Assembly (NCBI GenBank): GCA_965203195.1
Contig: OZ241860.1
Location: 642,334-706,333 of the forward strand
Source of the DNA: Dehalococcoidia bacterium
GTDB taxonomy: Bacteria; Chloroflexota; Dehalococcoidia; Lucifugimonadales; UBA3495
DNA length: 64,000 bases
Reading direction: 5' to 3'
This document shows positions 2,728 through 58,592 of this stretch, piece after piece. The stretch's first letter is position 1. The number at the start of each line of letters is the position of its first letter. Made by a program: the position numbers and the translations under genes. The notes beneath the pieces are model-generated. The model saw nothing but the letters and a program-made list of their open reading frames with translations, made no database searches and was not told where the DNA came from.

Positions 2728-3480
2728 ATGCCCAGATTGGAAGGCAAGGTTGCCATCGTTACCGGCGCGGCGCGGGGGATGGGCGAGGTGGAAGCGCGCC
2801 TGTTCGCCGAGGAAGGGGCGGCGGTCATTCTCGCTGATGTTCGGGACGCCGAAGGGCAGCGGGTGGCCGAGGAAATCGCGTCGTCCGGGGGCGCGGCGGA
2901 GTACGTCCGCCTGAATGTGACTGATGAGGACAACTGGCGGCAAGTTACCGGCGACGCGGCGGGCAAGCACGGGCGGCTGGATATTCTGGTGAACAATGCG
3001 GGCATCTCCGGGTACGATGAGGAGGACAACCTGGGGACGACCACTTGGGACCGGCTGCTGGACATTAACGCCAAGGGCGTCTTTCTGGGGATGAAACACG
3101 CTATTGCGGTGATGGAAAGGCAGGATGACGGGGGCAGCATCGTCAACATATCGTCCATTTCCGGCATTGTGGGGCAGGATTTCATTCATATGGGCTACAA
3201 CGCGTCCAAAGGGGCGGTGCGGCTGATGACGAAATCGGCGGCGGTGCGCTGGGCGGCGGCGGGGATACGGGTTAATTCGGTGCATCCCGGCCTGATGCCG
3301 CCGATGGCGGGGGGTTCGGCCAGTTCGGCGACGCGGGCGGCGATGACGGCCAACATTCCGATGCGGCGCACGGGACGGCGGGAGGAGGTGGCCTACGCGG
3401 CGCTGTTTCTGGCCAGCGATGAGGCATCCTACATTACCGGCGCGGAGCTGGTGGTGGACGGAGGATTCACGGCGCAGTGA
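2728..3480 (+). CDS. SDR family NAD(P)-dependent oxidoreductase
   Basis: 250 aa. Motifs: TGAARGMG (TGxxxGxG), NNAG, and catalytic YNASK (YxxxK). A strong RBS, AAGGAGG, lies upstream. Confidence 0.9.
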   Translation: MPRLEGKVAIVTGAARGMGEVEARLFAEEGAAVILADVRDAEGQRVAEEIASSGGAAEYVRLNVTDEDNWRQVTGDAAGKHGRLDILVNNAGISGYDEEDNLGTTTWDRLLDINAKGVFLGMKHAIAVMERQDDGGSIVNISSISGIVGQDFIHMGYNASKGAVRLMTKSAAVRWAAAGIRVNSVHPGLMPPMAGGSASSATRAAMTANIPMRRTGRREEVAYAALFLASDEASYITGAELVVDGGFTAQ

Positions 3481-3533
3481 CGGGGCGGCGGTTCAATCGC
3501 TGCCGCGTCACCGGTTTGCTGCCGGGCGACGGG

Positions 3534-4457
3534 TTAGTTGGCGGGCAGGGCGGCGATTTCCGCTTCCAGGCGGGCGATGTCGGCTTCGTCCAGGTTGAAA
3601 TACTTGGCGTCGGGGTGGTGAAAGACGAGGGCGGATACGGAACCCTCGGGGTCCATCATATAGCCGTCGGTGAGTTCCACGCCGATGTTGTCGGTTACAT
3701 TGAGCAGGGCAAAGAGCTTGGCCTGGTCCTCCAGGCGGGGGCAGGCGGGATAGCCGAAGGAGTAACGCTTGCCGCGGTAGTTGGCGCGGAACAGGTCGCG
3801 CAGTTCGGCGGCGCCGCCGAGTTTTAGGCCGGAGGGTTCGCCGATGCCCCACATACTGCGGATGCGCTTGTGGAGCAGTTCGGCGAAGCCTTCGGCGGAT
3901 TCGATGGCCAGGGCCTGGAGGGTGTGGGAGTCCAGGTAGCGGCCGGCGTTTTTCCAGCGTTCCGCGAGGGCGCGGACGCCGGGGCCGACGGTGGTGGCGA
4001 ACATAGCCACATAGTCGTTGGGGCCGTGGCCAACCGGGCGGGCGTAGTCGGAGAGGCAGAGGCCGTCGCGGGCCTGCTGGCGGCCGAAGTAGAAGCGTTC
4101 CAGTTCGGTTGCGCCGTCGGGCCGGTAGATGACGAGCCACTGGCCCTGGGAGCGGCAGGGGAAGAATTTGAAAACGGCGCTGGCGGCGATGTCGGAGCGG
4201 GACAGCATAATGTCCTCCACGCGCTGGGCCTGGCGGCGGAGTTCCAGGGCTTTGGGTTCCTGGTTTTGCAGGGCTTCGCTGAAGCGGCCGCGGTAGCCGA
4301 GGTGGCGGACGTAGAGCATCTGCGGGTTGATGTAGCCGAAGATTTCGTCCAGGTCGTAGTCGCGCAGGACGTGGAGGCGCAGGTCGGGGGGTGGGGGGGA
4401 GGCGTCCAGCGGGGGGACGACAGGGGCATTGACAGGGGTGTGGGCAGTCATATTCAT
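3534..4457 (-). CDS. stand-alone methionine synthase reactivation (AdoMet-binding) domain protein
   Basis: 307 aa resembling the C-terminal activation domain of cobalamin-dependent MetH (YINPQMLY..., RFYFGRQ, DYVAMFATTVG, RYSFGYPACP). The metH gene at 6133..8745 lacks this domain. Confidence 0.75.
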   Translation of the reverse strand: MNMTAHTPVNAPVVPPLDASPPPPDLRLHVLRDYDLDEIFGYINPQMLYVRHLGYRGRFSEALQNQEPKALELRRQAQRVEDIMLSRSDIAASAVFKFFPCRSQGQWLVIYRPDGATELERFYFGRQQARDGLCLSDYARPVGHGPNDYVAMFATTVGPGVRALAERWKNAGRYLDSHTLQALAIESAEGFAELLHKRIRSMWGIGEPSGLKLGGAAELRDLFRANYRGKRYSFGYPACPRLEDQAKLFALLNVTDNIGVELTDGYMMDPEGSVSALVFHHPDAKYFNLDEADIARLEAEIAALPAN

Positions 4458-18159: not shown

Positions 18160-19314
18160 ATGATACGCACCAGCGACTTTGACTATCACCTGCCCCCGGA
18201 GCGCATCGCGCAGACGCCGTGCGAGCCGAGGGACGCGTCCCGGCTGCTGGCGCTGCGCCGGCCCGCCGGCGGCGGCAATGTCAATATCAACATCAATGCC
18301 GCTGCCGCTGCCGCCGATACCGATGCCGCCGGGGGCGGCGCCGTTATTGAGCACCGCAGGTTTCGCAGTTTGCCCGATTATCTGCGGGCCGGCGATTTGA
18401 TGGTGTTCAACCGCAGCCGCGTCCTGCCGGCCCGGCTGTACGGCGCCGAAATCCGTTCCGGGGCGCGGGTGGAGCTGCTGCTAGTGCGGCGGCAGCAGCC
18501 GGGGGTGTGGCAGGCTTTGGGGCGTCCGGGCCGGCGGCTGCGCGCCGGCGCCGAGGTTATCATCGGCCCGGAAGTCGTCGGCCCGGAAGGCGCCGGGTTG
18601 GAAGGCGCCGGGGCGGCATCGGAAACCATCCGGGCTACGGTGCTGGAAACCCACGAAAACGGTCTCCGCACCGTCCGTCTTTCCGACGAAGCGGCGCTGC
18701 ATCGTCTGGGGGAAATGCCGCTGCCGCCCTACATCAAGGAAAAGCCGGCCGACCCGGAACGCTACCAGACGGTTTATGCGGACACACCCGGCAGTGTGGC
18801 GGCTCCCACCGCCGGCCTGCATTTCACCGACCGGATGTTCCGGGACATTCGCGCCCGGGGGGCGACCATAGCGTGGGTAACGCTCCATGTGGGGCTGGAC
18901 ACTTTTCGTCCGGTGCACGGCGAGGACGCCGGGGCGCACCGGATACATACCGAATGGTACGAGCTGCCCGCCGCCACTGCCGCCGCCGTCAATGGCGCGC
19001 GGCGGGCGGGCGGGCGCGTCATCGCCGTAGGCACCACCACCGTGCGCACGCTGGAACAGGCGGCGCAGGACGCCTGGCGGGCGGGGCGTACCGAAATCGT
19101 AGCCGCCACCGGGGACGCCGATTTGTTCATCTTGCCGGGGCATCCGTTCCGGCTGGTGGACGCGATGGTCACCAACTTTCACCTGCCCCGTTCCACTCTG
19201 CTGATGCTGGTGTCGGCATTCGCCGGCCGGGAGGCCATCCTGTCGGCATACCGGGAAGCCGTAGCCCGCGAATATCGCTTCTATTCCTTTGGCGATGCGA
19301 TGTTGATTCTCTGA
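18160..19314 (+). CDS. queA: S-adenosylmethionine:tRNA ribosyltransferase-isomerase
   Basis: 384 aa. The N-terminus is the classic QueA sequence MIRTSDFDYHLPPERIAQTP...RDASRLL. Also present are GRPGRRL, LPPYI and TNFHLPRSTLLMLV. It carries a low-complexity insert, NVNININAAAAAADTDAAGGG. Confidence 0.9.
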   Translation: MIRTSDFDYHLPPERIAQTPCEPRDASRLLALRRPAGGGNVNININAAAAAADTDAAGGGAVIEHRRFRSLPDYLRAGDLMVFNRSRVLPARLYGAEIRSGARVELLLVRRQQPGVWQALGRPGRRLRAGAEVIIGPEVVGPEGAGLEGAGAASETIRATVLETHENGLRTVRLSDEAALHRLGEMPLPPYIKEKPADPERYQTVYADTPGSVAAPTAGLHFTDRMFRDIRARGATIAWVTLHVGLDTFRPVHGEDAGAHRIHTEWYELPAATAAAVNGARRAGGRVIAVGTTTVRTLEQAAQDAWRAGRTEIVAATGDADLFILPGHPFRLVDAMVTNFHLPRSTLLMLVSAFAGREAILSAYREAVAREYRFYSFGDAMLIL

Positions 19315-19335: not shown

Positions 19336-19827
19336 TCAGGGGCCGGCCTGGCGGCGGCGTTCCCGGCTGGCAATGAAGTGCGTGGCTTCGTCGGGGCTGA
19401 TGCGGCCGACGGGGCCGCTGGCGTACATTGCGCCCAGCACTACGCCGCCGCGCCCCAGCAGAAACTCGGTGGGCTGGATGTAGCCGCCGCGGTCCTCCGA
19501 CCACCAGGCGCCCAGCAGGTTGGCGTCGGCGCGGCTGACGCCGTAGGCCATGGGGAAGGTTACGCCCGCTTTGGCGGCCATTTCCTGCACCGCCGCTTGG
19601 GGTTCCACGCTGGCGGCGACAATGCGGAGGCCAATTGCGGCCAGCGCGGCGCTTTGGGACTGCCAGGCGGCCAACTGCCGCGCGCAGTAGGGTCACCAGA
19701 CGCCCCGGTAGAACAGCAGCGCCAGGTAGCGGGAGGACAGGTCGGACGGCAGCGACAGAGCGCCGCCGTCAATCAGGTTGAGGGCGAGGGGCGGCAGACG
19801 GTCGCCCTGCTGTAGTTTGGCGTTCAT
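19336..19827 (-). CDS. AhpC/TSA (peroxiredoxin-like) thiol-disulfide oxidoreductase with in-frame TGA at the catalytic Cys position (candidate selenoprotein, UxxC)
   Basis: ORFs 19693..19926 and 19336..19674 are in the same frame, separated only by the TGA at 19693-19695. The joined sequence reads ...LALLFYRGVW-[TGA]-PYCARQLAAW..., matching the FYRGxWCPxC redox motif. Start at MNAKLQ (ATG 19825-19827). Confidence 0.6.
19660..19687 (-). promoter_or_regulatory. candidate bacterial SECIS hairpin
   Basis: The minus-strand sequence ctgc-gc-gcggc-AGUUG-gccgc-ctg-gcag forms 4+5 bp stems with an internal loop. It starts 6 nt 3' of the TGA. The apical loop contains GU and begins 17 nt after the TGA. 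Confidence 0.45.
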
Positions 19828-19856
19828 AATGGCGGGTGCGCTCCTCATCGCCGGGG

Positions 19857-20348
19857 TTAACGATCGCTGGCAGTGACGCCTTCGGGCCAGAAAAGTTCGT
19901 ACAGCCGCTGCGACAGCTGTTCGCACAGGCGCACGCCACTGGCGACGCGCGCCGGCGAGGCTTCGTCCTCATAAAAGTTCGTGTGCAGGTAGCGGGCGAC
20001 GCTGAAAGCGTTGTTGAGCCAAGTCTCCGTGTCGGCATCGCCAGATTGTCCGACCAGGGCGCTCAATTCCTCCAGCACGCTCCAGATGGCGCGGTGGGTG
20101 TGGATGACGCCGCCGTGGTGGGCGCTGATGGCTTTGACGGTTTCGGCGACCATCCCCCACGCCTTGTTGGAGGCTTGGGGCAAGTCGCCATCCTCCCGGA
20201 GGTGTTTCCAGGCGCCAGCGCGGAAATCACGGCTCATGCGGGCGTACTTTGCCGGCGACCGGCTGGCGTCATTAGGGGATGGCCGGTCGCGCACGGATGC
20301 CAGGCCGCGCCTGACCGCCGCCGCAGTGTCGTTAGCGGAGTAAATCAT
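19857..20348 (-). CDS. PaREP1-like / HEPN-fold-like all-helical protein (paralogue 1)
   Basis: 163 aa. The segment AWKHLREDGDLPQASNKAWGMVAETVKAISAHHG resembles the PaREP1 pattern (..GD..QASEK.WGA...A.KA.A...). Confidence 0.5.
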   Translation of the reverse strand: MIYSANDTAAAVRRGLASVRDRPSPNDASRSPAKYARMSRDFRAGAWKHLREDGDLPQASNKAWGMVAETVKAISAHHGGVIHTHRAIWSVLEELSALVGQSGDADTETWLNNAFSVARYLHTNFYEDEASPARVASGVRLCEQLSQRLYELFWPEGVTASDR

Positions 20349-20390: not shown

Positions 20391-20873
20391 CTAATCAGAG
20401 GCGTCGGCGCCTTCGGGCCAGAACGTTTGGTAGAGCAGCTGCGACAGCGTCTCACACAGCACAAGGCCATCGGCAACTTCTGCCGCTGTTTCCTCATCCT
20501 CATAATAATTGGAATGGAGGGCGCGCGCGGTGCGGAAGGCGTTGTTAATCAGGTTACGCGCTTCCAAATCGCCGGCGGCTTCGGCCAGCCCCGCCAGTTC
20601 CCGCATCACCAGCCAGATTGAGCCGTGAGCGTGAATGATGCCGCCGTGGTGGGCGCTGATGGCTTTGACGGTTTCGGCGACCAGCCCCCACGCCTTGCTG
20701 GAGGCTTGCGGCAAGTCGCCATCCTCCCGGAGGTGTTTCCAGGCGCCAGCGCGGAAATCCCGGCTGAGGCGGGCGTATTTCTCCGGGGTGCGGCCGGCGT
20801 CACCCGGCTGCGGCGGGTCGCGGCGCAGCGCGCGGGCCACGGCGGCGGCGATGTCATCGCTGGTATAAGTCAT
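20391..20873 (-). CDS. PaREP1-like / HEPN-fold-like all-helical protein (paralogue 2)
   Basis: 160 aa tandem paralogue of 19857..20348. The central roughly 140 nt are near-identical between the two genes. Confidence 0.5.
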   Translation of the reverse strand: MTYTSDDIAAAVARALRRDPPQPGDAGRTPEKYARLSRDFRAGAWKHLREDGDLPQASSKAWGLVAETVKAISAHHGGIIHAHGSIWLVMRELAGLAEAAGDLEARNLINNAFRTARALHSNYYEDEETAAEVADGLVLCETLSQLLYQTFWPEGADASD

Positions 20874-20948: not shown

Positions 20949-22172
20949 TTAGCAGGTGGCGCCGCCGGCGGCGGGCTGCTTGAGCTTCTCCGGCCACCAG
21001 GGGTCATCGTAGTCGGTGAACAGATCCTTCACATAAGGCATCACTTCGGTGGCGAACAGGTCGGTGTTCTTCCGCACCAGTTCGGGCGGCATACTGCCGA
21101 TCTGGAGCAGCACCATCAGGTGTCCGATGCGGAGCAGTTCGCAGGCTTCGGTCAGCTTCTGCCGCACGGTTTCGGGGCTGCCGCCGATGACATGGCCCTG
21201 CCGGATGTAATCCTGCCAGGTGTTTTCGGTGGCGGCGCGCTGGGCTTCCTCGCCCATCTGCGGGCGCAGGGACTTGCGGATGGAGTCCAGCGAGCGGTAG
21301 CCGGGCGATTCGGCGAAGGGCGGATAGACGCGCAGCATCTTTTCGTAAAAGTACTTGACGTGCTGCTCGTAGTCCTGCTCCGCCTGGGCGTCGGTTTCGG
21401 AGACGCAGACCAGTTGCAGGAAGCCCAGCCGGTGGGGGTTGTCGTCCACGCCCCTTTCGGCAACCCGCTCCCAGTAGCCCTTGACGATGTTGTGGCCGCG
21501 CAGATACCCGTAGTAGGACAGGTAGCAGTACACATAGTCCCGGTCCAGCACCCAGTCCCAGGTTTCCAGGCTGCCGGAGCCGGGAATCCAGACCGGCGGG
21601 TGCGGTTCCTGCATCGGGCGGGGCCAGATGCTGATGTAGCGCAGCTTGTTGTACTTGCCGTTGAATATAGTGGGCTGGCGCTGCGTCCACGCCTGCATCA
21701 CCACATCGTGGGCTTCGGTGTGGCGGTCGCGCAGGGTGATGGGAACCTGGCCGTAGGAAAAGGTGGTGTCCATTGAGGTGCCGACCGGGAAGCCGGCCAC
21801 CAGCCGCCCGCCGGAGATGACATCCAGCATGGCCATTTCCTCGGCCACGCGCACGGGCGGGTTGTACAGCGCCAAGCTGTTGCCCAGCACGATGAGGGCG
21901 CCGTTGCTGGTGGTGTTCGCCAGCACCGAGGCGATGAGGTTGGGCGACGGCATAATGCCGTAAGCGTTGTTGTGGTGTTCGTTGACGCAGATGCCGTCAA
22001 AGCCCACTGCGTCGGCGTAGCGCAGCTGGTCGATATAGTCGGCGTAGTACCGGCTGCCCTTGTCCGGGTCGAAATTTTCGTTGGGCAGGTCAACCCAGGC
22101 CGAATGGTGCTGCTGGGCGAAATCGTCGGGCAGGTCCTGGTAGGGCATCAGGTGGAAGAAGGAGACTTTCAT
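20949..22172 (-). CDS. LLM class (luciferase-like) flavin-dependent oxidoreductase
   Basis: Start at MKVSFFHLMPY. Motifs VNEHHNN and DVISGGRL. Paralogous to 40123..41358 and 49818..50945. Confidence 0.8.
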   Translation of the reverse strand: MKVSFFHLMPYQDLPDDFAQQHHSAWVDLPNENFDPDKGSRYYADYIDQLRYADAVGFDGICVNEHHNNAYGIMPSPNLIASVLANTTSNGALIVLGNSLALYNPPVRVAEEMAMLDVISGGRLVAGFPVGTSMDTTFSYGQVPITLRDRHTEAHDVVMQAWTQRQPTIFNGKYNKLRYISIWPRPMQEPHPPVWIPGSGSLETWDWVLDRDYVYCYLSYYGYLRGHNIVKGYWERVAERGVDDNPHRLGFLQLVCVSETDAQAEQDYEQHVKYFYEKMLRVYPPFAESPGYRSLDSIRKSLRPQMGEEAQRAATENTWQDYIRQGHVIGGSPETVRQKLTEACELLRIGHLMVLLQIGSMPPELVRKNTDLFATEVMPYVKDLFTDYDDPWWPEKLKQPAAGGATC

Positions 22173-22296
22173 GATGGCGTACCTCGGCGGCGCAGTGCCG
22201 CCCGCGCGTGTTGGATGACCGGATTGTACCACAGCGGTGAGCGGATGCTCATGGAGTGGATCTGGATAAATCAGTGACGGGATGTTTCATCCGCAG

Positions 22297-58468: not shown

Positions 58469-58592
58469 ACGGATTGACGCCCCGCACAGAAATCCCGGCG
58501 GGGTGCCCCGCCCGCCTGTTGCCGTAGCCGCCGCCCGAAGGCAGCGGGCCGGATGAACCGAGCCGGGGAAACCGGAACCCGGCCGCCTGCGG

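Follow-up and report, generated by a model that had tools for sequence, protein, structure and literature searches.

Two open reading frames on the minus strand of the 64-kb window (the whole stretch of DNA that was analyzed) lie in one frame and are kept apart by a single TGA. The question raised by this locus is whether that TGA disables a redoxin gene, separates two products, or is decoded within one product, and in this last case by which amino acid. In this study, we report the structure of the gene, the behavior of the TGA and of the RNA that follows it among relatives, and the predicted fold, active site and family of the product.

Structure of the gene

The frame is opened by the ATG at 19827..19825 (minus strand) and continues to a TGA at 19338..19336, its sole interruption being codon 45, a TGA at 19695..19693. 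Under translation table 11 the locus is divided into two ORFs of the same frame (19693..19926 and 19336..19674), and reading the TGA as selenocysteine (Sec, U) gives a product of 163 residues containing FYRGVW-U-PYCARQL. Both observations agree with the sequence-only reading, in which the two ORFs were parted only by the TGA at 19693-19695 and formed an AhpC/TSA motif once they were joined. The product matched PF00578 (AhpC-TSA) at 5e-17, with 62.4 bits against a cutoff of 26, and PF08534 (Redoxin) at 9e-10. The features of the gene are the following.

19336..19827, minus strand: complete gene of a probable selenoprotein, 163 codons plus a TGA stop, predicted Prx-like (AhpC/TSA-fold) UxxC redoxin
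19693..19695, minus strand: predicted Sec codon UGA, residue 45, position 1 of UxxC; homologous codon in 84/84 loci and Cys in the Cys-form homologues
19684..19686, minus strand: Cys48 codon TGC, putative resolving partner in U-P-Y-C; invariant in 50/50 aligned sequences
19336..19338, minus strand: true stop TGA, by direct translation
19841..19846, minus strand: Shine-Dalgarno-like GAGGAG, 13 nt before the ATG, read from the sequence; putative function

The start at 19827 is taken as right because the orthologues, which are 156-168 aa in length, begin at the same M-x-x-KLQQGD. Further disabling mutations were looked for and were absent, both from the gene at 19336..19827 (no frameshifts and no extra stops) and from the orthologues.

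The internal TGA and its counterparts in relatives

The gene was compared across 84 loci, 80 of which came from a one-genome-per-species scan of Dehalococcoidia, Chloroflexota and SAR202 and four from metagenome contigs. In all 84 loci the homologous codon was TGA, over identities of 57-97% (57-84% for the 80 species-level genome loci). A TGA at other positions in relatives had been set beforehand as a possible refutation of the selenoprotein reading, and the position proved to be the same throughout. The terminal stops of the 84 orthologues were TAG in 39, TGA in 24 and TAA in 21; the lineage thus uses TGA to end genes in the ordinary way, and it is the internal codon alone that is always TGA. 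Both flanks of this codon evolve under purifying selection, as dN/dS computed with 49 close relatives was 0.12 over the 40 codons that precede it and 0.22 over the 60 that follow. The public runs that contain the sequence are sponge and marine metagenomes. In the Logan contigs of four independent runs, no variants were found at 19693-19695 or at 19667-19681 (the hairpin core described below); other sites of the gene showed ordinary polymorphism.

The closest database proteins (73-96% identity) were nearly all fragments of 93-121 aa that cover only the part after the TGA, and full-length database relatives were 53-59% identical. Two of these fragments were traced to their contigs, and each had an in-frame TGA upstream at the same codon together with a conserved N-terminal part. 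Fragments that start just past the TGA are the usual annotation footprint of a selenoprotein.

Alignment with the Cys forms P0008, P0010, P0012, P0014, P0015 and P0045 placed C in the column of Sec45, so that the identity of this column with that of Cys-containing homologues, as the earlier reading presumed, was borne out. Sampling of the wider family at 50% identity gave C at the motif position in 74 of the best 150 cluster representatives, and many of the others were post-TGA fragments. In the tree, the Sec clade was monophyletic (100/100) and five Cys forms made up a separate sister clade (100/100), with the Cys form P0012 nested within the otherwise all-Sec clade.

P0012 (240 aa) is encoded at 3001-3723 of locus L090. 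The residues R-Q-L-A-A after the motif are kept, the codons are different (AGG CAG CTC GCG GCG), and the hairpin is absent. This gene looks like a Sec-to-Cys conversion that was followed by decay of the SECIS element. The called protein also carries a 75-residue N-terminal extension, which may be due to a mis-called start.

Trp is found at the Sec position in the public "full-length peroxiredoxin" entries P0002, P0004, P0005, P0007, P0130, P0145, P0151 and P0156. P0002, a JGI "full-length" protein (L089, 559-1056) and the sole W entry that was traced, matches its own DNA only when TGA is translated as W; therefore, it is a Sec form that was read by the wrong table. Copies of a redoxin domain of the FYRGxWCPxC type, fused to other regions, were observed in the long proteins P0124 (561 aa), P0127 (1430 aa), P0133 (444 aa) and P0137 (504 aa), with up to four matched stretches within a single protein.

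The hairpin after the TGA

The RNA immediately downstream of the internal TGA can be folded into a hairpin with two parts.

19667..19681, minus strand: putative SECIS core, 5-bp stem GCGGC/GCCGC with the pentaloop AGUUG; the stem starts 11 nt after the UGA
19659..19688, minus strand: extended hairpin, lower stem ACUGC/GCAGU plus the core, from the MFE fold; clade-specific and less certain

Counting the U of UGA as 1, ACUGC (8-12) pairs with GCAGU (33-37) and, after an internal loop, GCGGC (15-19) pairs with GCCGC (25-29), which closes the loop AGUUG (20-24). The hairpin and its AGUUG loop had already been proposed from the sequence alone and are retained here, but the dimensions given for them are corrected by the MFE fold: the stems are of 5+5 bp instead of 4+5 bp, the offset from the TGA is 4 nt instead of 6 nt, and the loop starts at 16 nt instead of 17 nt.

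The 71 nt after the TGA were no stabler than shuffled sequences (MFE -24.6, mean of the shuffles -30.0, z +1.74). Because the folding energy alone is not special, the significance of the hairpin comes only from the comparison across genomes. A scan of the whole 64-kb window at the Rfam gathering thresholds gave no match of any kind.

In the 83 distinct sequences compared, codons +5 to +8 after the TGA were CGG (83/83), CAG (83/83), TTG or TTA (83/83, never CTN) and GCC (81/83). Elsewhere in the gene, columns of Arg, Leu and Ala had 1.3-2.0 bits of synonymous entropy, with CGC and CTG preferred. The conserved element, CGGC-AGUUR-GCCG, begins 12 nt after the TGA, and a flanking pair extends its helix to 5 bp. 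This core helix was 98.9% paired and its closing or flanking pair co-varied (52 sequences with G-C, 14 with U-A); when the partners were slid by 1-3 columns as a control, pairing fell to 21-62%, and a range of 31-47% was also obtained for the core helix with slid partners. The G-U of the loop AGUUR was invariant across the family. The lower helix was 73% paired across relatives, and its pair 9-36 co-varied as well (C-G in 29, U-A in 13). In the Cys-form genes the element was absent from all four that were examined, and the core motif had no other occurrence in the approximately 600 kb formed by the window and the loci. The frozen synonymous sites, the compensatory pair and the absence from Cys forms give comparative backing to the claim that a SECIS-like hairpin follows the TGA.

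In the bacterial SECIS of E. coli fdhF, the minimal upper stem-loop lies 11 nt after the UGA and SelB contacts the G-U of the apical loop. The present element resembles it in lying within the coding sequence, in the 11-nt spacer between the UGA and the helix, and in its invariant loop G-U. It differs in that the core is shorter and simpler, with a pentaloop AGUUR that has no bulged U, and its binding by SelB is putative. In its spacing, stem and invariant loop G-U, the element has the geometry of a bacterial SECIS.

Search for selenocysteine machinery, and selenoproteins of the lineage

No tRNA-Sec was found by ARAGORN in the 64-kb window or in any of the fetched loci, and tblastn searches of the same DNA with the E. 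coli proteins (NC_000913.3) gave no match for SelA, SelB or SelD. Other in-frame TGA codons with coding-like GC3 on both sides were sought throughout the 64-kb window, and none was convincing besides that of the redoxin gene. With respect to the lineage, the ten bacteria richest in selenoproteins include Dehalococcoidia MAGs of the same naming series, with 46 and 49 genes (PMC13326102), and SelA and SelB are found together in most sponge-symbiont bins (PMC5649159).

ARAGORN also called an unusually long tRNA-Pro(CGG) of 86 nt at 58488-58573 (minus strand), and the Rfam gathering scan gave no tRNA match (RF00005) there. This call is either false or corresponds to an atypical or intron-bearing tRNA.

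Alternative explanations of the internal TGA

The splitting of the gene into two ORFs by table 11 is also what would be expected of a nonsense pseudogene, in which a redoxin gene in decay would have been disabled by the TGA, and the sequence-only reading had kept this as its alternative. That explanation is contradicted by the sharing of the same TGA by 84/84 loci over 57-97% identity, by dN/dS values of 0.12 and 0.22 on the two sides of the codon, by a frame without frameshifts or extra stops, by an internal codon that is always TGA while the terminal stops use all three, and by the conserved RNA element that follows it. We regard it as essentially excluded. Gene callers annotate this locus and most of its relatives in a way that would also suit two separate products, namely a 44-residue peptide and an independently initiated C-terminal protein of 112 residues from the TTG at 19674. 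However, neither redox residue would be present in such a C-terminal protein, nor would, according to the structural model, beta strands 1 to 3 of the fold. In addition, the starts of the called fragments differ among relatives (lengths of 93-121 aa), and purifying selection is stronger on the first 44 codons than on the remainder of the gene. We consider this arrangement highly improbable.

The only rival that we still consider live is the decoding of the UGA without Sec, either by near-cognate readthrough with Trp or Cys or by a lineage-specific suppressor, the hairpin being then merely stimulating. Hairpins located after stop codons are able to stimulate readthrough in other systems, and public gene calls do give W at the codon. 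Nevertheless, the W entry that was traced is an artefact of the translation table, and TGA is a normal terminator both in 24/84 orthologues and at the end of this very gene. Moreover, the site is the redox Cys of a CxxC and is occupied by Cys in homologues, and the spacing, stem and invariant G-U loop are those expected of a bacterial SECIS. The lineage, furthermore, is documented as very rich in Sec (PMC13326102). In attention to these points, Sec-independent decoding appears very unlikely, and the comparative sequence evidence indicates that 19336..19827 is very probably one intact gene whose internal TGA encodes selenocysteine.

Fold and active site of the product

The AlphaFold2 model, built from an alignment of 50 sequences, had a pLDDT of 92 and a pTM of 0.88. 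The best folds retrieved by Foldseek were BCP/PrxQ (3hjp, TM 0.83/0.86) and ResA (TM 0.72/0.84), the score being slightly better for the former. Among solved structures, the best sequence matches were a "thioredoxin family protein" of Geobacter metallireducens (3kcm), which was the top one (2.3e-7), and ResA of B. subtilis (1st9/3c71). In the alignment with 3kcm and ResA, W-U-P-Y-C falls on W-C-x-x-C, so that Sec45 corresponds to the first Cys and Cys48 to the second (WCEPC in ResA), and in that with 3kcm the cis-Pro loop (VP) falls on Q118-P119. In the model, Sec45 directly precedes the helix 46-57.

The alignment with E. coli Bcp obtained with hhalign gave the correspondence with a peroxiredoxin active site. 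With FYPKAMTPGC of Bcp against FYRGVWUPYC, Arg41 stands at the conserved Pro, Sec45 at the Thr and Cys48 at the peroxidatic Cys; with IHRISFLID against IQPTEFLLG, Pro119 stands at the catalytic Arg. The protein has neither the PxxxT/SxxC motif nor the catalytic Arg of canonical peroxiredoxins. A true peroxiredoxin was considered and rejected on this alignment: with Arg41, Sec45 and Pro119 in place of the catalytic Pro, Thr and Arg of peroxiredoxins, the protein is no canonical peroxidase. The proposal that Sec occupies the catalytic Cys of a peroxiredoxin-like protein thus holds for the fold and fails for the peroxidatic position, as Sec45 corresponds to the Thr of Bcp and to the first Cys of the ResA CxxC. 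Since Sec45 lies on the first thioredoxin-type Cys and not on the peroxidatic Cys, the designation "Prx-like thiol:disulfide oxidoreductase" (PF00578, UxxC) is the one that applies. By its predicted activity, the protein is an oxidoreductase of the thioredoxin type that carries UxxC on the scaffold of a Prx.

The redoxin is like ResA/TlpA in that the W-C-x-x-C and the cis-Pro loop of these proteins align with its W-U-P-Y-C and Q118-P119. Unlike them, which are membrane-anchored, extracytoplasmic and use Cys, it has no signal or anchor sequence and uses Sec. With BCP/PrxQ and the Sec-containing peroxiredoxins it shares the Pfam family and the overall fold, with Cys48 at the position of the peroxidatic Cys. 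It differs from the Sec-containing peroxiredoxins (TxxU), in which Sec replaces the peroxidatic Cys, in having its Sec three residues earlier.

Selenoprotein family

Scores against the NCBIfam selenoprotein families were well below their cutoffs: 16.7 bits against 270 for PrxU (NF040737), 19.2 against 120 for the SelL-related redox protein and 16.2 against 300 for WAxxUGC. A Prx-like protein was already listed as a selenoprotein in the Sargasso Sea study (PMC1088965), and the GOS study described "Prx-like 1, pfam00578, UxxC" as a marine selenoprotein family comprising 225 sequences with Sec and 2,740 with Cys (PMC2398784). A 2026 review lists the "Prx-like thiol:disulfide oxidoreductase", PF00578, with UxxC/UxxU and the Geobacter protein WP_010940744.1 as example (PMC13188914). 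These three sources confirm the earlier statement that Prx-like UxxC proteins are an established class of bacterial selenoproteins.

The redoxin shares with Prx-like 1 the PF00578 domain, the thioredoxin-like UxxC (U45-P-Y-C48), its occurrence in marine bacteria, the many Cys homologues and a SECIS placed right after the UGA. It differs from the catalogued Prx-like 1, for whose founding Geobacter member 3kcm served as the nearest stand-in, in forming a distinct Dehalococcoidia/SAR202 subfamily with FYRG-x-W-U-P-Y-C, an invariant YASGPVGR and a C-terminal helix. In the sampled genomes this subfamily almost always has Sec (84/84). The redoxin therefore belongs to a known kind of selenoprotein, described since 2004-2008, and its recognition is a correct but ordinary find.

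Proposed mechanism

We propose that the ribosome reads the UGA at codon 45 as selenocysteine. The hairpin 11 nt downstream would serve as the bacterial SECIS, presumably by bringing SelB-GTP-Sec-tRNA(Sec) to the ribosome, and the TGA at codon 164, which has no such hairpin, would terminate. The product would be a cytoplasmic redox protein of 163 residues with a thioredoxin fold on a peroxiredoxin/BCP scaffold and the active site Sec45-Pro-Tyr-Cys48. Located just before the first active-site helix, the Sec45 selenolate may take the role that the first, nucleophilic Cys has in CxxC motifs of the thioredoxin/ResA type and attack a substrate, probably a disulfide or another oxidized sulfur species. 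Cys48 would then resolve the intermediate, giving an intramolecular selenenylsulfide that a cellular reductant would reduce again.

Genomic neighborhood

Upstream of the redoxin gene, on the same strand, the following genes were found.

19857-20348 and 20391-20873, minus strand: two tandem PaREP1-family genes (PF05942, 1.4e-10 and 6.7e-8), directly upstream of the redoxin gene
20949..22286, minus strand: luciferase-like monooxygenase, open frame (PF00296, 9.6e-34); orthologues of 407 aa

No specific NCBIfam subfamily was matched by the luciferase-like monooxygenase. It was present on the same strand and upstream of the redoxin gene in 49/49 loci of the close clade (L005-L053), at 86-95% identity, and 0, 1 or 2 PaREP1 copies lay between the two genes in related genomes. 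In the distant clade (L054-L084) this neighbor was absent. Across species the monooxygenase is far more conserved (86-95%) than the Sec-redoxin (73-84%). From the downstream side, queA converges on the redoxin gene. The ORF translation of QueA shows a low-complexity insertion (…GGGNVNININAAAAAADTDAAGGGA…) between conserved segments, at 18265-18335 of the window (plus strand).

Two further ideas are put forward together as a single speculative reading, which on the whole we consider unlikely. According to it, the redoxin may be a dedicated selenol partner of the upstream luciferase-like monooxygenase rather than a free-standing antioxidant, the two making up a redox module of two components that is specific to SAR202 and depends on Sec in nearly all cases, and the invariant minimal SECIS (CGGC-AGUUR-GCCG, at 11 nt from the UGA) may be the motif that the SelB of this lineage recognizes.

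Significance

The redoxin selenoprotein reveals no new mechanism. The family constitutes a natural experiment on the minimal bacterial SECIS, in which 83 Sec forms with frozen synonymous sites stand against Cys forms where these sites are relaxed. The main value of the finding is the correction of the annotation, given that gene callers split the gene and databases store either fragments of about 100 residues or false-Trp entries that stem from reading TGA by code 4. These split and false-Trp entries lead to under-counting of both the redox capacity and the selenium dependence of sponge-associated and marine SAR202 bacteria.
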